This document shows, in pieces, positions 5,228 to 19,430 of a stretch of 64,000 nucleotides of DNA. Where the stretch lies: positions 3,168,001 to 3,232,000 of the forward strand of contig OY776510.1 in the NCBI GenBank assembly GCA_963675665.1. The letters run 5' to 3'. Made by a program: the position numbers and the translations under genes. The notes below the pieces were generated by a model. It was not told the origin of the DNA. It was given only the letters and a program-made list of their open reading frames with translations, and did not search any database. Position 1 is the first letter of the stretch. The number at the start of each line of letters is the position of its first letter. Origin of the DNA: Spirochaetia bacterium. GTDB taxonomy: Bacteria > Spirochaetota > Spirochaetia > UBA9216.

Positions 5228-8200
5228 CTAATAAATGATACTGCCGGTTAGCCCTAAACTCAAGCCGTACAGCAGGGTTTTATTTTCTGAAACGTTATTA
5301 TATTCAACTCCGAAAAGGCCGAATGCGGACAGCGTAAATATCCGGGGCAGCACAAGAGATGTTGTATGTCTGAATTCGGTACTTATCGAGGCTTCAACAT
5401 CGACAGACAGTTTTTCCTCATGAATAATAAGCTGGAAATTTTCCTCTTCTGAATCAAACAGGGGGAGATTAAACGGTGTTGCCGGGTGTTCAGTTCTTAC
5501 ATATATAAGATCTGTTTTAAATTCGGACTGCAGGTCTTCATATCCGACGGGCAGAAAAAATGAACTGTCTACTGATAAAATCTGTTCTTCGTGTCCGAAA
5601 AAAGAGCAGCCCGTGCTGAAAATGTATTTCTGTAGTATTGATTCGGAAAAGGGGTCGGCCAAAGCGGCTTCAACTGACCAGTTGAATTCATCAGAGAAGT
5701 AAAAGTCGAAAAACGAATAGACACCGGCTGCTCCGAAAAGGTTAAGGGCAGCAGACCGCCATACAAGATCAAAATCAAGACTGTCTTCGAGATCGTCGTA
5801 ATCCTTTAGTGAATTTCTTTCCAGCCCGGTACTTACCGAAAACGGTACAAGCAGATCAATAAGCCGGCTGCTGTAGTTTCTGGAAAATTCCGCGCGGATT
5901 GAGTTGTTCAGCTTGGCCTGGTCAATTTCGGCGGCAGTGCAGTCGTCGAAAACTGTTTCGGGAAGTGCGGGATCAAACAACTCACAACCTGGAATTGATG
6001 TATAAAGATAGTCCCGGCGGGAAAGCAGGTAGAACATATCGGATATATCATCCGTAAACCCGGAACTTTCCGTTGTGTGGGTAAAATCAGCTGAACGGGA
6101 AAATTCAAGCCGGGCTGAAATTGTTCCGCCTGAGGTTGATATTGATACGGGAAAGCCTGCGCTGATTTCCGCAGAATCGGTTTTTGTATTCTCGTCGTTG
6201 ATATCCGAATTTGTTTTTATTCCAAATTCAAATCCGACGGGAATTGTAAGTATTGCCGGTGAAAGTTGTATTTCTATTTTACGCTGTTCAAGCTGAAACG
6301 GGGTGAAATTAACAGCAAGGGCCGTGGCATCTGCCCATCCACTGAAATAATTGTTCCAGTCGAAAGACGAGGTGCTGTCTGAGAGCAGCATTTTATAACC
6401 GGCATCAAGGCTGAACAGGGTAGTCGACATGGTAATGTCTGAAGACCATTTGCGAAGCAGGTTTCCTTCATTATCTGCGGTTGAAAATTCTGCCGGAGTT
6501 CCGGAGAATACACCGGCATTCAGCCTGAGACTTCCGGTCTTTGAAAAGTCCCCTCCGGATGCCGACTCTGTTCTGAATGAATCGCAGAGATGCAGATAAC
6601 TGCCGACTACCGGGATATCGATTGTGTGCCCGGCGGCAAGCAGGTTAACGCCGCCGGCGTCTTTCAGGTTGCAGTCTGCTGATACTGAAGTCCCCAATAT
6701 CTCACTGCTGATTTTTGAATAGAGATTTACAACTCCGGTGTTATAATCAGCAGATGCAGACAGCGCGGCAGGACCTATAATTTCCAGATTGCCGGCAGTG
6801 AGCAGCGGCCCGGATGAACTGATTTCGATATCTCCGCCGACGCCGGCGGTAGTATGCAAAACGGGATCTGACAGCGAGACTTCATCCAGATAGAGGACCC
6901 CGCCGGAGGCATTCTCGGTTCCCGTTTCAATAAACGAAAGATCTCCCGAATCCGAGTCAAAGGTCAATTCAGCCTGTGTATTCTCAACATTATTAACAAG
7001 AACTGTTCCCGTCCCGCCGTCAGCGCCCGGTAAAAGCTCAATTTTGTTCCAGGCGGTACCGGAACCAAGCGGTATTTTCGACTTGATTCCCGAACCTTCC
7101 GAATCAACCATATTGAAAATAAGAAGAGGGGGGGCTGCTCCGGATGGTGTAAGTTCGGGACAATAGGCATGGAAAGTCACTTTGCCGTATTCCGTCGGCG
7201 GTACCGGGTAAATAACTGTGCGGATTTTCCAGTCGTCAGTCCATTCGATTCGCAGGACTTTGTTTGACTCACCCGCTGAAAGCGTATCGGCCGTAAGCGC
7301 CGCCGAGGGTGTTTCGGCGGCAGGAATCAGAGCTTCGCTTATCTCGGAAAAATCCGGTTTTACTGCGATATCAGGATCAGCATACATTACAGATCCTTCA
7401 AATGTGAAATCATCAAACATAATGCGGCCGGATGTTTCGCCGGTTCCGTTGTTTACAGCGGTTATACGAATAAACCCGGCATTTCCAAGGCGGCTGCGCG
7501 CCGCATCGCTTAAGTATAGCCTTACGGTTTTCCATCCTGTACCGGGTTTTACAAAATCTGCGGAGGAAGAAAAAAGAACCGACGCATCTGTTTTTTCGGA
7601 ATCAAGAAAACCGTTGCCGTTAAAATCTTCACTGTCCTCAATCCCGTTACTTTTTTCAAGATTATCACCGCCGATAAGTGTTCCCGATTCGGAATTCGGA
7701 TCGTTGAATATATATCCTGAAGAATAAGCGGATGTTTCAGCATCCAGGTTTCCGTCGTCGTCAAGATCTTCCGAAAGAGAGCCTGTTTCGATATAAAGAG
7801 TGATATTGCTTAAATCAGAGTCGGTTTTGCAGTCGAACGACAGCGCCCTGCTGGCGCTGAGGTCGGGGTTCTCTGAACCGTAGGCAAGAGGAATCTGTAC
7901 GCCGGCCCAACTGTTGCTTTCGGGGAGGATGTAATCCATAGCAAGGATTTCTCCGGAACGACTGTCTGTAACGGCAGAAGCAGTATAAGGGCCTGCCTTG
8001 AGCTGCCCGGAGGCTGACGAATCGGATGGCGAAAAGATCATTGATTCATCAATCTCGGCAGTATAATCCTGAAGATAATAGGAGCCGAAACTGGTCGGGA
8101 CACGATAATCCTTGTAAAGAAGAAGCCCTCTATCCTCCGGGGCAAGGCCGATATTTTCCGAAGCGGAAGCAGGGAAAACGGTATTTCTGTTAAGAGGAAC

Positions 8201-9841
8201 GCTGTACCCGTCAGCCGACATGCTTAAAAGCAGCAGGCGTCCCGCCGAGTTTTGAGACAGAAGTTTTACCCCTCCGGAAATACCGGCATTCAATTGGTAT
8301 GCATCTGTCTGATTTTCATCGGAATTCGAAAAACTCAAACCTGCAGTTATACCGCCGTATCCGCTTGTTTCTTCCCCCGGAAGCGCATACGAATCCGAGA
8401 TGTTCCAGCGTACTCCGCCGTTAAGATATGCCGAAAGATGATCGGTAATTATGAAGCTGTTGGATGATGCAAAAAGAATATCGCCGCCCGTACTGCCGGA
8501 AGATTTTTTACGGTAGTAAATTTCAATCCGGTCTTCGGAGCCGGGCCGGGTATCAAAGGTAATAACACCGTTCGATTCAGTCCATGCAGAGGTCTCAATT
8601 TCGTTTATGTATATTCTAACGGTGCCGTCGACAGGATCGTCGATCGAATATGACGAGCTTTCTTCGCGTATTACAAAAAGAAGTTTACGGTCGTCATAGC
8701 TGCCGTAAACCGAAGAATCGAGGATGATAATTCCTTTATCCGGAATTATGTCGGATGCGAGTTCAATTCGTGAGGCTGATGAGGAGGCAGCATCCGTGAT
8801 ATAAACCTTTGTTCTCCAGTATTCATCCGGAAGAACGGTGCCGAGGTTATAAGCTGCTGAATTCTCAAAAGGAGACAATATCCCCGGTTCATAAAGCATC
8901 AGCATAGTGCCCTTGACTGAATTAATAATCCAACCGGGGTCAATTCCGCTCCAGTCCGGATCCTCCGCCAGAACAAGTAGTGCCCCGGGAGATTTTTCTT
9001 CCAGAACCAGACTCCCTGTAGACGGAGACCATGAATATTCCTGATCTGACAGCAGTGAATAATATCGGCCTTCATGAAGAAATGCCTGAGTGCCGTCGGA
9101 CCCTGACTCGATATAAAAAACAGAAGCGGAAGGGCTTCCGGGAACTTCAAAATAGCGGCCTTTTACATAGTCGGATAATTCCATTTCGATTTCCGTTACC
9201 GAATCGGAACCGATATAAACCTGGCGCTGCTCTTCTTCAGGGTCAAAACGGAATAGCAGTTCGTGTTCGGAGAACGGACTGCATAAAACTGAATGAATTC
9301 CGAATGAGGAAGGGCCTCCGCCCGGAACATGGAAATAATCATTCATTGGGACATCTTCAGACATGTTTATTCCCATATTGCCGACGGAAACGGACTGGAC
9401 GATTTCTCCCTCCTGTCCAATATATCCTAATCTGAAAGTCGAATCATCAAATTCATCGCTGAAAGCCGCTTCAAAAAGGTAGCGGTTTAAAATCAGAACT
9501 GAAGCTGTAAAATCAGGTGACTGGGAAAAAGCAAAACCGGAAGAAATACCGGGGTAGGTAAGCGCCGGATTAAACCCGGTATCAGACGTCCAGCCCGTGC
9601 CGAAAGATGCAGAAGTTTCAATTTTCCAGCTTCCTGTGAAAAACATCTGTACATCTTCGCTGTCCTGTCGGGCTTCGAGAAAAGCGGAAGGGCTTTCCTC
9701 TTCCGGCAGGAGCGGTTCATCCGCGGAAAATGCCTGTTTCGGGAATAGAATAAAAATAATTAAAAACAACAGTGAAATATATTTGAAAGCATATTCGGTT
9801 GTCCGCAACATTAACGCAAAGTATATCCTGTTTTTATTCAT
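5228..9841 (-). CDS. Large exported protein, SprA/Sov (T9SS translocon)-like
   Basis: 1537 aa with a signal-peptide-like N-terminus. Motifs FRLGYIGQEGEIVQSVSVGN, SSFGIHS, SDYVKGRYF, WAGVQIPL, LYIETGSLSED and DSEDFNGNGFLD recall SprA. Beta-rich C-terminal third ending in Tyr. Confidence 0.6.
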   Translation of the reverse strand: MNKNRIYFALMLRTTEYAFKYISLLFLIIFILFPKQAFSADEPLLPEEESPSAFLEARQDSEDVQMFFTGSWKIETSASFGTGWTSDTGFNPALTYPGISSGFAFSQSPDFTASVLILNRYLFEAAFSDEFDDSTFRLGYIGQEGEIVQSVSVGNMGINMSEDVPMNDYFHVPGGGPSSFGIHSVLCSPFSEHELLFRFDPEEEQRQVYIGSDSVTEIEMELSDYVKGRYFEVPGSPSASVFYIESGSDGTQAFLHEGRYYSLLSDQEYSWSPSTGSLVLEEKSPGALLVLAEDPDWSGIDPGWIINSVKGTMLMLYEPGILSPFENSAAYNLGTVLPDEYWRTKVYITDAASSSASRIELASDIIPDKGIIILDSSVYGSYDDRKLLFVIREESSSYSIDDPVDGTVRIYINEIETSAWTESNGVITFDTRPGSEDRIEIYYRKKSSGSTGGDILFASSNSFIITDHLSAYLNGGVRWNISDSYALPGEETSGYGGITAGLSFSNSDENQTDAYQLNAGISGGVKLLSQNSAGRLLLLSMSADGYSVPLNRNTVFPASASENIGLAPEDRGLLLYKDYRVPTSFGSYYLQDYTAEIDESMIFSPSDSSASGQLKAGPYTASAVTDSRSGEILAMDYILPESNSWAGVQIPLAYGSENPDLSASRALSFDCKTDSDLSNITLYIETGSLSEDLDDDGNLDAETSAYSSGYIFNDPNSESGTLIGGDNLEKSNGIEDSEDFNGNGFLDSEKTDASVLFSSSADFVKPGTGWKTVRLYLSDAARSRLGNAGFIRITAVNNGTGETSGRIMFDDFTFEGSVMYADPDIAVKPDFSEISEALIPAAETPSAALTADTLSAGESNKVLRIEWTDDWKIRTVIYPVPPTEYGKVTFHAYCPELTPSGAAPPLLIFNMVDSEGSGIKSKIPLGSGTAWNKIELLPGADGGTGTVLVNNVENTQAELTFDSDSGDLSFIETGTENASGGVLYLDEVSLSDPVLHTTAGVGGDIEISSSGPLLTAGNLEIIGPAALSASADYNTGVVNLYSKISSEILGTSVSADCNLKDAGGVNLLAAGHTIDIPVVGSYLHLCDSFRTESASGGDFSKTGSLRLNAGVFSGTPAEFSTADNEGNLLRKWSSDITMSTTLFSLDAGYKMLLSDSTSSFDWNNYFSGWADATALAVNFTPFQLEQRKIEIQLSPAILTIPVGFEFGIKTNSDINDENTKTDSAEISAGFPVSISTSGGTISARLEFSRSADFTHTTESSGFTDDISDMFYLLSRRDYLYTSIPGCELFDPALPETVFDDCTAAEIDQAKLNNSIRAEFSRNYSSRLIDLLVPFSVSTGLERNSLKDYDDLEDSLDFDLVWRSAALNLFGAAGVYSFFDFYFSDEFNWSVEAALADPFSESILQKYIFSTGCSFFGHEEQILSVDSSFFLPVGYEDLQSEFKTDLIYVRTEHPATPFNLPLFDSEEENFQLIIHEEKLSVDVEASISTEFRHTTSLVLPRIFTLSAFGLFGVEYNNVSENKTLLYGLSLGLTGSIIY

Positions 9842-9893
9842 TTTACTCCCACATTATTGATTTTTTGGCACATTTGGACGAGAATGAAACCAA

Positions 9894-10829
9894 ATGGATA
9901 TTAATGAAACAGACAAATTGAAGGCGGCTGCGTTTATACAGAGATTGATGGCTAATCCTGCCCTTAAAAGTTTTTCACCGCTGCAGCGGGAAGAACAGAT
10001 ACTTCAGTTTCTTACCGTAAATGCATCACAACTTTATCCCACCCTGTCATCCGGCTCTTTTTTTGCAGGCAAAAACTGGGAATCGATATGCAGAATACTG
10101 TTCAATGTTCTTTATGAAACAATAAACAAGGAAGTAGTTCCCGAGGCAGGATTACTGATCAACAGGCTTGATTTTACTTTCTTTACTTTTCTCAGGCAGG
10201 CTAATATCGATGAAGGCAGCGCCAAGCAGACTGTAATAAGCCTGATTGAAAAGATGTTGGCCAATGAACAGGCAAGAAGAATTCTGGCCGGATCTCTGGC
10301 TGCAATCACCAACAATATTGTAAAAAAATATATTGCTGAAATTTATCAACGGCGCAAATACGTTCATTTTGAAATTATGAAAGTAGAACGTCTTAAGATT
10401 GGAGAGAAAGAAGCGGAAAATATGATTTCGCTGGTTATGCTTCTTAAACCGCTTGTTTATCTGTTTGCTCCGCAGGGGCAGTCTGTAAAAAATACCGCTA
10501 ACGGACAGCTTTTTCCTGTTCATTTTACGGCAAATATTGCGCAGAACCTTGCACAGAAAACACCGGCTATTCCGGAAAAAGTTTTTTTAAGCGCCATGAA
10601 TTCCAATTCGTCATTTGCCGACTACAATAAACTTGAAGCAACAGCAAGGATGGGGAATGTTCTTGTTTCAATGTGCCGGAATTACAAACCTGAAGCAAAG
10701 AAAGACCGGGGCGCAGATACTGCGATAAAAAGCTGGATAAATGTTGCCAGAAAGAATTACAAATTTTATGGATATGATATAAAAATGCTGGATGAACTTT
10801 ATAATATAGCTGCAGATAACGGATGGTAG
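9894..10829 (+). CDS. Hypothetical alpha-helical cytoplasmic protein (311 aa)
   Basis: Long ORF heading a tight three-gene cluster; no recognisable domain. Confidence 0.8.
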   Translation: MDINETDKLKAAAFIQRLMANPALKSFSPLQREEQILQFLTVNASQLYPTLSSGSFFAGKNWESICRILFNVLYETINKEVVPEAGLLINRLDFTFFTFLRQANIDEGSAKQTVISLIEKMLANEQARRILAGSLAAITNNIVKKYIAEIYQRRKYVHFEIMKVERLKIGEKEAENMISLVMLLKPLVYLFAPQGQSVKNTANGQLFPVHFTANIAQNLAQKTPAIPEKVFLSAMNSNSSFADYNKLEATARMGNVLVSMCRNYKPEAKKDRGADTAIKSWINVARKNYKFYGYDIKMLDELYNIAADNGW

Positions 10830-10836
10830 GGGCGAA

Positions 10837-11934
10837 ATGGAAAAGAAGAATAACGAAATTATAGAGAATATTGTTATGGCCGCGATTTTTCTTGTTCTTG
10901 TACAGACTTTCCTGGAAGATCTTGCGGTTGTTGCCGGATGGACCTGGACCGTTAGAAAAACTCTTGTTTTAACGGGGTTCTGTTTTGATCTTTTTTTCAC
11001 AATCGAATTTCTTTCCAGATTATACCGAGCTGTAGAAAGAGGAAACGTCAGGGAATATCTGATATTAAAAAGAGGATGGATAGATCTGCTTGCTTCAATA
11101 CCGCTGCTTCTGCTTAATTCGGGACCTTCGGCACTGGCTGTTATTCTCGGCGGAGGAGCAATCAGCGGAGCGGCCGGTATCCTGAATGTTCTGAAGGTAA
11201 TTAAGGCAGTACGGATTGCCAGAATTCTAAGACTTTTGAGAGTGTTAAAAATCTTCAGACAGATAAAAAATACTGAGTCTGTTATGGCCCAGAGGCATGT
11301 AACTATGGTTACTACCATGGGTGTTTCGGTTTTTGTTTTTGTTCTGCTGATTGCGTCGGTATTCACCCAAATGCTTCCTGTAACAACGGTTGAAAAAGAA
11401 AATGAGAAAAAGGTTATTGAAATAATGATGGCATGGGCCGAAGGAGATGAATCGGCTGCCGTGAATTACTCGGATCTGCTGATTGTTAAAAAAGACGGTG
11501 AAACTGTTTTTTCACGTTATGATAATGAGTATTATACGGAAAACTTCGGTTACAGTGATTACCTGTATTCGGAATATCTCGGAAATGAATATTTTTTCGA
11601 TTTAAGAGGTACATCCGGGATCCAGTCAATGAACAATCTGATTTATTTCATCATCATTCTTGTACTTGTAATGGCCTTTACTTTTATATACAGTCCGCAT
11701 TTCGCAATGACCGTCAGCGATCCAATTCATGTAATGCGGAGAGGCTTTGATGAGAATTCATATAACTATGAAGTCAGGATTATCAGGGAGTATGAAAACG
11801 ACGATATTTTCCGGCTGGCTGAAGGGTATAACGACACTTATCTTCCGATGAAGGACCGTAACCAGGCTGAAAACGGTGAAATTGATGCGGATTCGCTTGA
11901 ACTTAAAATGGATGATATCCAGAACATGTTCTGA
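10837..11934 (+). CDS. Ion_trans-like membrane protein: voltage-sensor S1-S4, two further TM helices and a HAMP-like tail, no pore loop
   Basis: S2 FDLFFTIEFLSR, S3 WIDLLASIP, S4 KVIKAVRIARILRLLRVLKIFRQIK; no GYG filter. C-terminal TVSDPIHVMRRGF...DDIFRLAEGYN resembles HAMP. Confidence 0.8.
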   Translation: MEKKNNEIIENIVMAAIFLVLVQTFLEDLAVVAGWTWTVRKTLVLTGFCFDLFFTIEFLSRLYRAVERGNVREYLILKRGWIDLLASIPLLLLNSGPSALAVILGGGAISGAAGILNVLKVIKAVRIARILRLLRVLKIFRQIKNTESVMAQRHVTMVTTMGVSVFVFVLLIASVFTQMLPVTTVEKENEKKVIEIMMAWAEGDESAAVNYSDLLIVKKDGETVFSRYDNEYYTENFGYSDYLYSEYLGNEYFFDLRGTSGIQSMNNLIYFIIILVLVMAFTFIYSPHFAMTVSDPIHVMRRGFDENSYNYEVRIIREYENDDIFRLAEGYNDTYLPMKDRNQAENGEIDADSLELKMDDIQNMF

Positions 11935-12221
11935 TGATTGTTTCCATGATACAATTTGTTTTTGAACTTCCTGAAGTCGAAAACATAAAAGATAAAAGAC
12001 GAATTGTAAAATCCTTCCGTGATAAACTAATCAAGAAATTTCATGTTACTGCTGCAGAAGTAGATCTTCAGGATTCTTTGAGATTTACACAGATTGGTGC
12101 AGCATTGGTTTCAAATTCAAAAATCTACGGCGAGTCCGTAATGCAGAAGATCCTGAAATTTGCTGAAGATGAAGTGCCGGGGCGCCTTCATGATGTCGAG
12201 ATTTATTCGGAAAGTTATTGA
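11934..12221 (+). CDS. DUF503 (YlxP-like) protein
   Basis: IKDKRRIVKS...KKFHVTAAEVDLQD...IGAALVSN family pattern; TGATG overlap with the upstream gene. Confidence 0.88.
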   Translation: MIVSMIQFVFELPEVENIKDKRRIVKSFRDKLIKKFHVTAAEVDLQDSLRFTQIGAALVSNSKIYGESVMQKILKFAEDEVPGRLHDVEIYSESY

Positions 12222-12225
12222 GCCG

Positions 12226-12252
12226 CTTTCAAAACTCTCCGGGTTTTGAAAG
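12226..12252. terminator. Hairpin between convergent genes, possible terminator
   Basis: CTTTCAAAACTC-TCC-GGGTTTTGAAAG; no strong U-tract. Confidence 0.45.
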
Positions 12253-12261
12253 AGCCTCAAT

Positions 12262-12972
12262 TTAATCCGGAATTATTTCTTCAGGATCGTCAATGTTAAA
12301 AAGATAAATGGATTCAACTTTAAAAATTCTGTCGACTTCCATTGAATTGATAAACTTGTCATCAGCCTTAAGTTCAAAATCAAGAAAATGCTTAACAGGC
12401 TTGTAACCTGAGGCGGAAAGAGAAAGTTCAAATGAAAAAGATTTTTGCTCGCCAATCTTTTCAGCTTTTATCGGTAAGGGCCAGAACAGAAAATTGCCGT
12501 CGGTTTCCGCAATCAGCTCGCAGGGATTGTTCCAGCGGAGGCCATTCATCTTTACGAGTTCTCCGTTCATTTTCAGGGAGATTGACGATCCGCTGTACGG
12601 CGCAAATGTTTTGCCGTCGACAACCTTGCCCTTTATAATGGGAAAGTTGAAAATAGGAGGTTCAGGCAGGTTAGAGGTTGTTTCGGAGGCGACGGGGCGC
12701 AGGTGTGTGCCTACCTGCCTGATGCCTTCGTTCACCAGGGCGGTAATATCCGCAATGCTCTGGGGTTCGTCAATAAATGTTTTGCCAAGATGGGCAAGAC
12801 CCCGGGACGAGGTGGTATAGATGGGCTGAATTCGGTTAAGAACGTAACAGACTACATCCGTCCGGCATGCATCTGAATTATTACAGCCTGTACGTTCTAT
12901 GAAAACTTTATCAGAGAAGATATCATCAACGACATCAATTACCATTTTTTCCATCAGATTATGAATTTCCAT
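12262..12972 (-). CDS. ComFB-family protein with C-terminal beta domain (putative c-di-NMP receptor)
   Basis: MEIHNLMEKMV...CRTDVVCYVLNRIQPIYTTS is the ComFB signature. Confidence 0.88.
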   Translation of the reverse strand: MEIHNLMEKMVIDVVDDIFSDKVFIERTGCNNSDACRTDVVCYVLNRIQPIYTTSSRGLAHLGKTFIDEPQSIADITALVNEGIRQVGTHLRPVASETTSNLPEPPIFNFPIIKGKVVDGKTFAPYSGSSISLKMNGELVKMNGLRWNNPCELIAETDGNFLFWPLPIKAEKIGEQKSFSFELSLSASGYKPVKHFLDFELKADDKFINSMEVDRIFKVESIYLFNIDDPEEIIPD

Positions 12973-17568: not shown

Positions 17569-18240
17569 ATGAAAAAGAGTGTGACAAAATCCCTTTTTAT
17601 TCTTAATATACTTATAGTTACAGTTTTTATAACGGTTTCGTGCAATCGAAGCGGCGAAGAAGACCCGGTGAAAGCGGAAGCTGCCGGCGACAAGATCGTC
17701 AATTCGGAAAATAAAAAGAAGCCTGAGCAACAGGGAACCGGCGGAAACGAAGGTGTTGAACAGAAAGCCGTAATAAGTGAAACGGAAGGCCGTGATTTTT
17801 TATTATTCTATGATGATATGCCGGATATCGTAGTTCCCCGGGATTATAAAATAGGGCAGCTGCAGCAAAAAACCGGTATTGATCCGGTAATTTCAGATAT
17901 AATAAATACAGCTTCGGCTTTCCTGGAATCTATAAAAAACGGAGATCCGGATTACAAACTTGTAGCTGTCGAGAAAAGAGATTTTGTTGAACGAAATCTT
18001 GAAAGGCAGATGCAGATTATTCTTCCGGAGGATTTCAGAATAGGAATCATAATGACGGAAGCCGAGCCTGTTAATGCGGCGGTCAGGTTTATTAATAATG
18101 GCCGATATTCGGAAGGTATGCTTTATTTTGTAAATAAGGGCCAGTGGAAGATTTATGATTTTCAAATGGATTTTAAAAAAATGACGGTTCCTGAAGAGGG
18201 AAAAGAGGAAAATTTATGGGAAACAGTATCAGCAGAATAG
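17569..18240 (+). CDS. Hypothetical lipoprotein
   Basis: Start moved to ATG 17569: MKKSVTKSLFILNILIVTVFITVSC, a lipoprotein signal with lipobox Cys. Confidence 0.75.
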   Translation: MKKSVTKSLFILNILIVTVFITVSCNRSGEEDPVKAEAAGDKIVNSENKKKPEQQGTGGNEGVEQKAVISETEGRDFLLFYDDMPDIVVPRDYKIGQLQQKTGIDPVISDIINTASAFLESIKNGDPDYKLVAVEKRDFVERNLERQMQIILPEDFRIGIIMTEAEPVNAAVRFINNGRYSEGMLYFVNKGQWKIYDFQMDFKKMTVPEEGKEENLWETVSAE

Positions 18241-19430
18241 AGCGGGAGTTCATAATAAAAGCCCTTGACGACAATAAATTTGTGCTGAGTATGCATGGTT
18301 TAAAAAAGGAAGCTGATGTAGTAATCCTTAATTACGAGGAAGAGGATTTCGTTGATGTTTATTCAAAAAACCGCGACCTTGATGAATTTGAAATTGGCGA
18401 AAAAGTTCGATTGTTTTTTTCCTATTACGGCCATGTGATGACATTTAATTCAAAAATTCTTTCCTGCGACGAAGAAAAAGTACGGCTGGCCTACCCGGAA
18501 GGAATCCTGAAAAACCTGCAGCGTAAATTTGAGCGGGTAAATCCGCCCAAAGGTGTAGGGCTGCAGTTTACTGTTGATAATGTTAAAGTTGAATTAAGAT
18601 TTCCGGAATCCGGAAGATTTGTAAGGCTTGAAGAACATAGCAGTAACGGAAAATTCGATACAACCAGTATTAACAAACTGGTTTCGGATTTTAAGGAGAT
18701 TATATCAAGTCACTGCGACGAAAACAGGATTACAATGTTCAGGGATCGGGAACCGGAAAGCTTTGAAGAAAAACTGATATCAAGTACCGGTTCTGTTTTT
18801 TTTATGCAGTCTATTTATGAGGGGATGACCGTTCCCGAAACGAAATCAGATATTCCTGTTGTCAGCAAAGAAGAGCTGGAACCTGAAGAAATTGAGCAGC
18901 TGATATCAGACATGAAAAGGGCAGGCGAATATTCAGTTTTATATTGCCCGATTCTTTATCATGAATATACGGCAGGATACATATTCCTCTGTAATGAAAA
19001 AAATAAAAAAATTGAAGTAGATACGCTTGAATACGTATATGAATTTTCAAAAATACTTGCGTGGTCTCTTAATAAAAATAATTATTTTTCAGGTGGACAA
19101 ACCAAGGCCCAGCAGTTTAAATCGCAGATTATTGATATCAGCGCGTCGGGGCTTTTGTTTGCGGATACTTCAGAGAATTTAAGCGATGTTCTTAATATTT
19201 ACACCGACATTAATCTTGAACTGAAAATAAACAAGCGTAAAATGGTGGTTTATTCCAGAATAATGAGAAAGTATCATAATAAAGGCACTACATTTTACGG
19301 TGTTCAGTTTATGGATATTAACCCGGAAGACTTCAGATACCTCTTTGAATATGTATACGGCAGGGTTTTTACGGAAACAGACAGCAACATGTGGGAAGGC
19401 GGCTCAAGGCCTCCTACACTTGAGTTGTAG
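18216..19430 (+). CDS. PilZ-domain c-di-GMP receptor (spirochaete multi-domain type)
   Basis: RxxxR motif QRKFER, DxSxxG motif IIDISASGLL, C-terminal YGVQFMDI. Confidence 0.88.
   Translation: MGNSISRIEREFIIKALDDNKFVLSMHGLKKEADVVILNYEEEDFVDVYSKNRDLDEFEIGEKVRLFFSYYGHVMTFNSKILSCDEEKVRLAYPEGILKNLQRKFERVNPPKGVGLQFTVDNVKVELRFPESGRFVRLEEHSSNGKFDTTSINKLVSDFKEIISSHCDENRITMFRDREPESFEEKLISSTGSVFFMQSIYEGMTVPETKSDIPVVSKEELEPEEIEQLISDMKRAGEYSVLYCPILYHEYTAGYIFLCNEKNKKIEVDTLEYVYEFSKILAWSLNKNNYFSGGQTKAQQFKSQIIDISASGLLFADTSENLSDVLNIYTDINLELKINKRKMVVYSRIMRKYHNKGTTFYGVQFMDINPEDFRYLFEYVYGRVFTETDSNMWEGGSRPPTLEL

Follow-up and report, generated by a model that had tools for sequence, protein, structure and literature searches.

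A spirochaete protein with a pore-less voltage sensor and a HAMP-like end, and its conserved neighbour: candidates for a two-protein membrane signalling unit

Voltage sensors without an ion pore are textbook rarities, and the known ones, i.e. VSP, Hv1, TMEM266, and SLC9C1, are eukaryotic. Here we describe a bacterial gene for a protein, termed VSD365 in the following, that has a voltage-sensor domain, two further transmembrane (TM) helices, and a HAMP-like domain, and that is preceded by a gene for a cytoplasmic protein, termed up311. Both genes lie in a stretch of 64,000 nucleotides (nt) of Spirochaetia bacterium (assembly GCA_963675665.1, contig OY776510.1, positions 3,168,001 to 3,232,000 of the forward strand), which is called the window below. 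The starting point was an original prediction, made from the letters of the window alone, that VSD365 is a pore-less sensor of the membrane potential. The best-supported reading of the computational analysis is that VSD365 senses voltage or proton-motive force without a pore, and we lean, by a modest degree, towards the view that VSD365 and up311 constitute a two-protein membrane signalling unit built on a pore-less voltage sensor and restricted to spirochaetes.

The closest described systems resemble VSD365 in part. Ci-VSP and TPTE also have a pore-less S1–S4 sensor, which in Ci-VSP controls a cytoplasmic effector, and Ci-VSP is the best structural match of residues 2–142 of VSD365. Unlike VSD365, they are eukaryotic and carry a PTEN-like phosphatase fused directly after S4, whereas VSD365 differs from Ci-VSP in two further TM helices, a HAMP-like domain, a separate non-catalytic candidate partner, and nine S4 charges. 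Hv1 and TMEM266, which are eukaryotic and consist of the sensor only, share the voltage-sensor domain without a pore domain, but they continue after S4 with a coiled coil, and Hv1 conducts protons; in VSD365, S4 is followed by two additional TM helices, and a separate protein is its candidate partner. In the sperm Na+/H+ exchanger SLC9C1, a voltage sensor regulates a protein that is not a channel, and this sensor was among the fold matches of VSD365 (8pcz, Z 9.7). In contrast to VSD365, SLC9C1 is eukaryotic and fuses a transporter to a cyclic-nucleotide-binding domain, and it has neither a HAMP domain nor a separate adaptor. A published abstract describes it as the only known transporter that is regulated by voltage-sensing domains. 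According to passages of a 2024 review, Hv channels are absent from bacteria and archaea, and these passages name no prokaryotic pore-less sensor. Full-text searches on pore-less or signalling voltage sensors revealed no published description of a bacterial protein that combines a voltage sensor with HAMP.

Two further groups are relevant for the comparison. The channels with six TM helices (KvAP, NavAb, and Kv1–Kv4) share with VSD365 the Ion_trans family, the charge-transfer centre, and the S4 ladder, and TM5 and TM6 of VSD365 are in the places of S5 and S6. Unlike these channels, VSD365 has no pore helix or filter, its TM5 and TM6 are poorly conserved, the link after S4 has only about six residues, and the protein ends with a HAMP-like domain. 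The bacterial HAMP receptors, i.e. Af1503, methyl-accepting chemotaxis proteins (MCPs) such as Tsr and Tar, and kinases such as NarQ, have the same succession of TM helix, outside domain, TM helix, and proline-led helix-connector-helix, and in weak profile matches the register of the HAMP-like domain agrees with that of Af1503 and of the HAMP domains encoded in the same genome. VSD365 differs from them by four extra N-terminal helices, i.e. the voltage sensor, and by the lack of a kinase, MCP, or cyclase output. Its HAMP motif diverges, with DD-I-F for DE-I-G and YN for FN, and is not detected by Pfam, and its output is predicted to be a docked separate protein.

A search of proteins of 200–639 amino acids (aa) revealed 851 relatives of VSD365 at E ≤ 1e-3, and therefore the gene is no chance open reading frame (ORF). 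The best 120 of the 851, among which is the window's own protein, have lengths of 316–478 aa and identities of 47–71%, and they stem from Spirochaeta, Spirochaetales, Spirochaetia, Spirochaetota, Candidatus Thalassospirochaeta, and Salinispira. Without exception, their source names are “ion transporter” or “hypothetical protein”; the former is the label that automated pipelines had been expected to apply. NCBIfam yielded nothing useful for VSD365. Conservation was calculated from one alignment of 95 sequences, which was also the basis of an AlphaFold 2 (AF2) model with a predicted local distance difference test (pLDDT) value of 77.2 and a predicted template modelling score (pTM) of 0.70. With the whole model, no Foldseek match reached E ≤ 1e-3, and the weak rows at the top were the channels with six TM helices CNGC1, Eag1, and Kv1.2-2.1 (E 0.19–0.6).

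The S1–S4 part of VSD365 is a genuine, intact voltage-sensor domain. Pfam Ion_trans matches the protein with 30.7 bits (E 2.4e-7, cut-off 25), which is the sole Ion_trans match above the cut-off in its own genome, and all 95 family members are matched as well (best E 2.1e-14). AF2 places the four helices at residues 2–33, 37–68, 80–104, and 118–142. S2 contains F54-x-x-E57-x-x-x-R61, S3 contains W81-I82-D83, and S4 has nine K/R residues at every third position (K120, K123, R126, R129, R132, R135, K138, R141, and K144), so that the complete module and the motifs quoted in the original prediction are present. F50, D51, F54, E57, F58, R61, W81, and D83 are invariant in the S2/S3 region; F54, E57, and D83 constitute the charge-transfer centre and are presumably the equivalents of F290, E293, and D316 of Shaker. 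Six of the nine S4 charges are also invariant (K120, K123, R129, R132, R135, and K138), and R126 and K144 are kept in at least 90% of the sequences. Among all segments, S4 shows the highest conservation, with a mean top-residue frequency of 0.88 and 16 of 27 columns conserved to at least 90%, followed by the link between S4 and TM5 (0.80), S3 (0.77), and S1 (0.74).

The fold was compared with 48,161 chains using VIA-align, and the resulting rows covered about residues 1–157 of the model. The top match of residues 2–142 is the voltage-sensor domain of Ci-VSP (4g7v, Z 12.7, root-mean-square deviation (rmsd) 3.3, 125 aa), followed by Cav1.2 (Z 12.0), Cav2.2 (11.5), Kv4.2 (11.2), and further Cav, Kv, and Nav channels including Nav1.5, all with Z values of 10–12. 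As helical bundles can produce generic matches with Z values of up to about 13, this match is read together with the sequence evidence. In the reading proposed here, VSD365 would be voltage dependent.

The two TM helices that follow do not show the signature of a pore. After S4, a break of a mere six residues leads to TM5 (residues 149–179 in the AF2 model), and between TM5 and TM6 (257–294) the model has a helix/four-strand domain (185–255) and no re-entrant pore helix. TM5 and TM6 are the least conserved helices, with mean top-residue frequencies of 0.52 and 0.51, and only 1 of 25 and 2 of 28 columns, respectively, are conserved to at least 90%. The selectivity-filter patterns were found in one (T.G[YF]G), none (T[LF][ED][SG]W), and none (F...T...W) of the 95 members. 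Together with the short TM5-TM6 loops described below, this bears out the expectation that neither a pore helix nor a TxGYG filter is present. We cautiously favour the view that TM5 and TM6 form no ion pore, a statement that is part of the joint reading given at the beginning, and the label “ion transporter” on these genes is probably wrong.

The outside domain turned out to be smaller than estimated, i.e. about 77 aa and not about 85 aa, while both flanking TM helices and the domain itself are present as foreseen. Its N-terminal half is the most variable segment of the protein (0.30), and its C-terminal half is more conserved (0.59, 7 of 44 columns conserved to at least 90%). The VIA-align rows stopped at residue 157, so that no fold match was obtained for residues 180–256. 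In a search of 401 Spirochaetota genomes with the sensor profile, short forms were found that match only at positions of about 3–176 and 260–370. Those retrieved have 282–295 aa, a TM5-TM6 loop of few residues, and no outside domain, and they retain the S2 and S3 motifs, eight S4 charges, an SxMSQHH link, the HAMP-like motifs, and a DDYSDLL tail. Ion_trans spans only profile positions of about 2–150 in the short forms and in most long relatives. The outside domain is therefore an optional insert, and the receptor layout of TM helix, sensory domain, and TM helix that had been proposed applies to VSD365 and not to the short forms. The core of the family is the sensor, a TM hairpin, the HAMP-like domain, and the tail.

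For the C-terminal part, AF2 predicts a helix of residues 296–305, a loop, a helix of residues 323–345, and a tail helix of residues 358–364, i.e. a helix-loop-helix directly after TM6 that is led by a proline, as in HAMP domains. The motifs are VSDPIHVMRRGF at residues 293–304 and DDIFRLAEGYN at residues 322–332, and the acidic tail ends with ...LKMDDIQNMF365. P296 is invariant and aligns with the HAMP proline in hhalign and in the PDB matches. Residues 283–350 of the family alignment were compared by hhalign with 30 aligned HAMP domains of the same genome, which resulted in a score of 21.9 (E 2.1e-4, probability 46%, 50 columns aligned) and placed P296 on the HAMP proline, YNxEV on GDLxV, and DD(I/V)FxLAxxYN on DEIGxLxxxFN. 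None of 200 column shuffles attained this score (mean 9.0, standard deviation 2.06, maximum 18.1), and the reversed alignment scored 9.8. Other segments of 68 aa gave 11.3 or less (seven segments with starts from 1 to 205) and 10.1 (residues 239–306), and the overlapping segment 273–340 gave 22.5.

Three further lines have the same direction. Pfam HAMP matches 2 of the 95 family members (best E 0.0052). A profile search of 177,635 distinct PDB sequences with the part from TM5 to the C-terminus yielded two matches, both to the HAMP domain of Af1503 and in the same register, at weak E-values of 0.96 and 1.3. The ESM Atlas neighbours of residues 257–350 are HAMP clusters with scores of 0.92, 0.91, and 0.91, whereby scores of 0.9 arise for 4–10 in 100 shuffled proteins. 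The four lines are individually weak and agree with each other, suggesting that the C-terminus is HAMP-like, as originally proposed, and forms a divergent HAMP domain in the canonical register, although it is not counted as a member of Pfam HAMP.

A catalytic output domain had not been expected, and a look at homologues for fused outputs had been recommended. Pfam has no domain of that kind in VSD365 itself, none was found among 6625 candidates of 640–2000 aa (a negative that the tool itself rates as weak evidence), and 10 longer relatives of 407–509 aa have no extra Pfam domain. Five relatives of 459–509 aa (P0129, P0132, P0133, P0024, and P0117) have about 100–140 residues beyond the tail without a Pfam match.

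The original prediction had postulated signalling through a separate partner, and up311 is a concrete candidate, by gene linkage and by a predicted complex. In 79 of 80 related loci, up311 is located directly upstream of the sensor gene, and the 80th locus begins inside the sensor gene. The loci stem from species genomes that have spirochaete titles except for one “uncultured bacterium”. Further neighbours shared by the 80 loci are genes for a 1537-aa protein (70), DUF503 (70), a ComFB protein (62), and an HD protein (62). Five loci with short forms have an up311 homologue (23–27% identity) directly upstream, and the other neighbours of the window were not found there. In Borrelia anserina, the 288-aa upstream protein matches the up311 profile with an hhalign probability of 97.1% (E 5.3e-11).

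To estimate the linkage at the level of the phylum, the 401 Spirochaetota genomes were searched with both profiles. The sensor profile matches 91 genomes (59 of 153 genera), the up311 profile 72, and both profiles 68. In 67 of the 68 genomes that have both genes, sensor and up311 are adjacent on one contig, within 824 nt of each other and with a median distance of about 25 nt. At E ≤ 1e-3, 303 proteins belong to the up311 family; of the 120 that were listed, all are named “hypothetical protein”, all named organisms are spirochaetes, and none has a precomputed Pfam domain. The VSD365 and up311 families were found in Spirochaetota only.

Both full-length proteins were folded together in a 1:1 stoichiometry. 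The ipSAE values of the predicted complex were 0.68, 0.70, and 0.72, in comparison to 0.20, 0.00, and 0.00 for the controls; the ipSAE mark is attained by 116 of 157 solved complexes and by 2 of 215 mismatched pairs. At least 94% of the contacts were common to the runs, and the partner had pLDDT values of at least 83. The predicted interface comprises residues 290–365 of the sensor, i.e. both HAMP-like helices, the connector (310–314), and the tail (349–365), and residues 17–50, 201–203, and 270–292 of up311. Of the up311 residues in the interface, 14 of 34 are conserved to at least 90%, versus 46 of 277 elsewhere (odds ratio 3.5, p 0.002). Four residues are invariant across all divergent up311 proteins, three of them in the interface (G273, S280, and W281) and one outside (E301). 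It is thus predicted that up311 binds to the HAMP-like domain and the acidic tail of VSD365.

Sequence searches did not assign up311 to a known family: Pfam and NCBIfam have no match, the sole match among the PDB sequences is at chance level (E 0.65), and the ESM Atlas offers no usable match. The AF2 model (pLDDT 92, pTM 0.89) is almost entirely helical with one short hairpin. Foldseek found nothing at E ≤ 1e-3 with it, and HD-GYP entries recur among the weak rows (E 0.75–1.7). The top six VIA-align rows are all of the HD-GYP type, i.e. DvhD (Z 10.2 and 8.8), Bd1817 (8.6), PA4781 (8.4), V-cGAP3 (8.1), and PmGH (7.9), with Z values of 8–10 being a grey zone for helical proteins; 160–181 aa were aligned at an rmsd of 4.0–5.5, within about residues 82–311 of up311. 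The majority of the 50 rows are HD-superfamily hydrolases. An HD pair is absent from the family: a single column has histidine in at least 30% of 47 sequences (H158, 77%), and the next residue is the invariant F159. Neither Pfam HD nor HD_5 matches up311. HD-GYP domains, including the degenerate Bd1817, superpose on residues of about 105–311, but up311 differs from them in lacking an HD or GYP motif and any profile similarity. It also has an additional helical domain at the N-terminus, which takes part in the predicted interface. With moderate confidence, we assign an HD/HD-GYP-like fold without catalytic residues to this region, and we read up311 as an HD-like pseudo-enzyme or adaptor.

The distribution of variants connects up311 with the tail. 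Paralogues without the tail, termed type B, have 351–376 aa and 27–33% identity to the sensor, and the profile matches end at positions 349–359. They occur especially in one genome family, in which the sensor profile matches 17 of 17 genomes and the up311 profile 5 of 17. Of the genomes matched by the sensor profile, 23 lack a match to up311; twelve of these 23 belong to that same family, and in nearly all of the 23 the sensor matches stop before the tail. As tail-less matches are mostly found in genomes without up311, the acidic tail and up311 go together. In the type-B loci (L121–L129), a caspase-like Peptidase_C14 gene is located directly upstream in 5 of 9 cases, a SLOG (LDcluster4) gene nearby in 4 of 9, and a polysaccharide deacetylase gene downstream in 7 of 9; one of these loci (L124:3994-8344) contains five genes on the same strand with short gaps. 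The type-B neighbourhood may represent a second, different use of the sensor module. The possibility that the caspase-like protein is a diverged up311 was rejected (hhalign probability 0.1%).

In B. anserina (L114:27-7883), the sensor homologue (348 aa) and the up311-like protein (288 aa) are encoded tail-to-tail with a row of chemotaxis genes, which by Pfam are flaA, cheA, a cheW-CheR fusion, cheX, and cheY. A 170-aa ORF without a Pfam match lies between the pair and this row. The adjacency is a lead only. Another relative (L119:5980-7038; 353 aa, 24% identity) lacks the tail and has an S4 with weakened charges, and no up311 homologue was found in the surrounding 13-kb stretch; its upstream neighbour is a spermidine synthase gene on the opposite strand. 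The sensor profile has no match in three large Spirochaetota genome families (0/50, 0/75, and 0/38).

The use of the C-terminal module was assessed by searching 1.84 billion proteins with the profile from TM5 to the C-terminus, which resulted in 261 cluster representatives at E ≤ 1e-3, 200 at ≤ 1e-10, and 128 at ≤ 1e-30. Most of the 150 representatives listed have 350–400 aa and match from about residue 135–145, leaving room for a sensor at the N-terminus. The remainder are shorter and apparently fragments, or the match is placed elsewhere. Among these 150 of the 261, the module was not seen on another kind of N-terminus.

The features of the locus are collected in Table 1. The ATG of the DUF503 gene overlaps the TGA of the VSD365 gene by one base (TGATG). 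The DUF503 gene follows the sensor gene in 70 of the 80 close loci, and it was not found beside divergent pairs of sensor and up311. It is probably co-transcribed with the sensor gene in the lineage of the window, and it is outside the conserved core of the unit. Scans of positions 9700–12400 for promoters (6 versus 7.3 in shuffles) and for terminators (2 versus 2.4) revealed nothing above the shuffled sequences.

Table 1. Positions of the features in the window; residue numbers refer to VSD365
Feature	Position	Strand	Description
up311 partner gene	9894..10829	+	311 aa, cytoplasmic, all-helical; stop 7 nt before the VSD365 ATG
VSD365 sensor gene	10837..11934	+	ATG start, 365 aa; voltage-sensor domain, TM5, outside domain, TM6, HAMP-like domain, acidic tail
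S1–S4 voltage-sensor domain, residues 11–144	10867..11268	+	Ion_trans; S1 acid D28, F54/E57/D83 with R61, nine S4 K/R
S4-TM5 link, residues 145–154	11269..11298	+	S148, Q152, R153, H154 invariant; M150, A151 conserved to at least 90%
TM5, residues 155–179	11299..11373	+	in the place of S5; poorly conserved
Outside domain, residues 180–256	11374..11604	+	two helices, hairpin, helix, hairpin (AF2)
TM6, residues 257–284	11605..11688	+	in the place of S6; poorly conserved
HAMP-like domain, residues 285–345	11689..11871	+	YSPHF junction, P296-led helix, YNxEV connector, DD(I/V)FxLAxxYN helix, LPxKxR
Acidic C-terminal tail, residues 346–365	11872..11931	+	...L-x-L-K-M-D-D-x-x-x-x-F; predicted to lie on up311
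DUF503 gene	11934..12221	+	95 aa; Pfam DUF503, E 2e-23

Several neighbouring genes of the window are also of note. The gene at 12262-12972 (-) encodes the ComFB protein that is conserved by the operon in 62 of the 80 loci (236 aa, ComFB domain at the N-terminus with E 3.6e-17); proteins of this family have been described as cyclic-dinucleotide receptors. The gene of the 1537-aa protein, kept in 70 of the 80 loci, is located at 5228-9841 (-) and divergent from up311, with 52 nt between the start codons; its product has a signal-peptide-like N-terminus and no Pfam match at E ≤ 1e-3. The gene at 18216-19430 (+) encodes 404 aa with DUF1577 and, at the C-terminus, a PilZ domain, which is the mark of a family that binds cyclic di-GMP; it is followed by the gene of a 922-aa TPR protein.

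The computations establish what the domains are, that no pore signature is present, that the two genes are linked, and where the two proteins are predicted to meet, and the mechanism that we propose builds on these results. S4 would move when the membrane potential changes, and the short invariant link between S4 and TM5 would hand this movement to TM5, TM6, and the HAMP-like domain. TM5 and TM6 would act like the TM pair of a receptor, with or without the small outside domain, and feed into the divergent HAMP domain. The HAMP-like domain and the acidic tail would hold up311, and the HAMP-like domain would alter this holding or the shape of up311, which might then relay the signal to some target. 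We infer the direction of signalling as well as the existence of a target downstream of up311.

A number of our results weigh against this reading, and they are considered here together with the other explanations that they favour. Concerning the domain identities, Pfam HAMP (PF00672) has no match in VSD365 at E ≤ 1, and the protein is absent from the 34 HAMP matches in a scan of its whole genome; the hhalign probability is no higher than 46%, and the Af1503 and ESM Atlas matches are at the weak levels given above. For up311, hhalign versus 13 HD-GYP (HD_5) domains of the same genome yields a probability of 0.3%, in addition to the grey-zone Z values. The main rival is an unconventional voltage-gated channel, which we regard as unlikely. 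Ions or protons would pass through a filter-less TM5/TM6 bundle in a tetramer or through the voltage-sensor domain itself, similar to Hv1 or to an omega current, and the HAMP-like domain and up311 would be an auxiliary or gating subunit, as Kv-beta or KChIP are for Kv channels. Ion_trans is the only family above the cut-off, and the alignment of VSD365 covers profile positions 6–221 of 241 and likewise reaches 221 in a few relatives; S5 and S6 may therefore be the ancestors of TM5 and TM6. The relatively polar TM5 (27% S/T/N/Q/H) and the weak Foldseek rows are compatible with this explanation as well, and the S1 acid D28 and the long S4 would fit a conducting voltage sensor. However, Ion_trans covers only positions of about 2–150 in most members, no P-loop was found, and filter motifs are absent with one exception among 95 members. 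The putative pore helices are the least conserved ones, and the loop between them is reduced to few residues in the short forms. In addition, a HAMP-type domain right after TM6 is established as a feature of receptors and not of channels. The absence of Hv channels from bacteria and archaea, as stated in passages of the 2024 review, also argues against this explanation.

A receptor for a ligand or for envelope stress would take its input from the outside domain or the membrane environment, and S1–S4 would be a voltage-insensitive scaffold for folding or lipid contact. The succession of TM5, outside domain, TM6, and HAMP is the classical receptor layout, and the outside domain is moderately conserved in its C-terminal half. 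The main support comes from Borrelia, where most S2–S4 charges of the homologue are gone and outside domain, HAMP-like domain, and partner have been retained, so that the pair can work without voltage sensing. Nevertheless, no part of the protein is more conserved than the charged S4, the short forms have lost the outside domain but keep eight S4 charges and the partner, and the N-terminal half of the outside domain is more variable than any other segment, making this explanation quite unlikely in our opinion. Alternatively, the adjacency and the complex could be misleading, with up311 being an unrelated conserved neighbour and the sensor signalling via a HAMP homodimer to another partner, or not at all. 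The whole 10-kb neighbourhood is syntenic in close relatives, and adjacency there could thus be mere ancestry. HAMP domains are normally dimeric four-helix bundles, so that in a 1:1 fold up311 may occupy the true dimer face. N332 (invariant) and L336 (at least 90%) stay conserved when three type-B paralogues are part of the alignment; since type-B genomes mostly lack up311, this is consistent with the same concern. For VSD365, the share of conserved residues in the interface (12 of 33) is not significantly higher than elsewhere (12 of 48, p 0.33). In contrast, the pairing outlasts the exchange of all other neighbours and holds in 67 of 68 genomes, the controls of the complex scored far lower, the most conserved residues of up311 are in the predicted interface, and genomes with only the tail-less paralogue mostly lack up311. 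We therefore judge a coincidental neighbourhood to be very improbable.

In papers of 1981–83, membrane-potential-dependent chemotaxis was reportedly described for the free-living Spirochaeta aurantia, and clamping the potential is said to block chemotaxis. A more far-reaching view of the signalling unit would be that of an “excitation-to-behaviour” device, i.e. the missing voltage sensor behind this chemotaxis, with the docked pseudo-HD-GYP protein relaying a fast electrical signal to motility or cyclic-dinucleotide control. Taken as one joint claim, this is a rather doubtful idea at present.

VSD365 couples an intact voltage sensor to the standard transmission module of bacterial receptors. 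Throughout much of one phylum, its gene is linked to that of a dedicated candidate partner, and Borrelia has retained a decayed copy. The pair thus offers a concrete two-protein system to find out if a bacterium can sense the potential of its own membrane as a signal, and a molecular candidate for the observations on membrane potential and chemotaxis in S. aurantia. If the excitation-to-behaviour view were true, a protein partner in place of an ion pore would for the first time be known as the output of a prokaryotic voltage sensor, and a long spirochaete cell could use VSD365 to read fast electrical signals.

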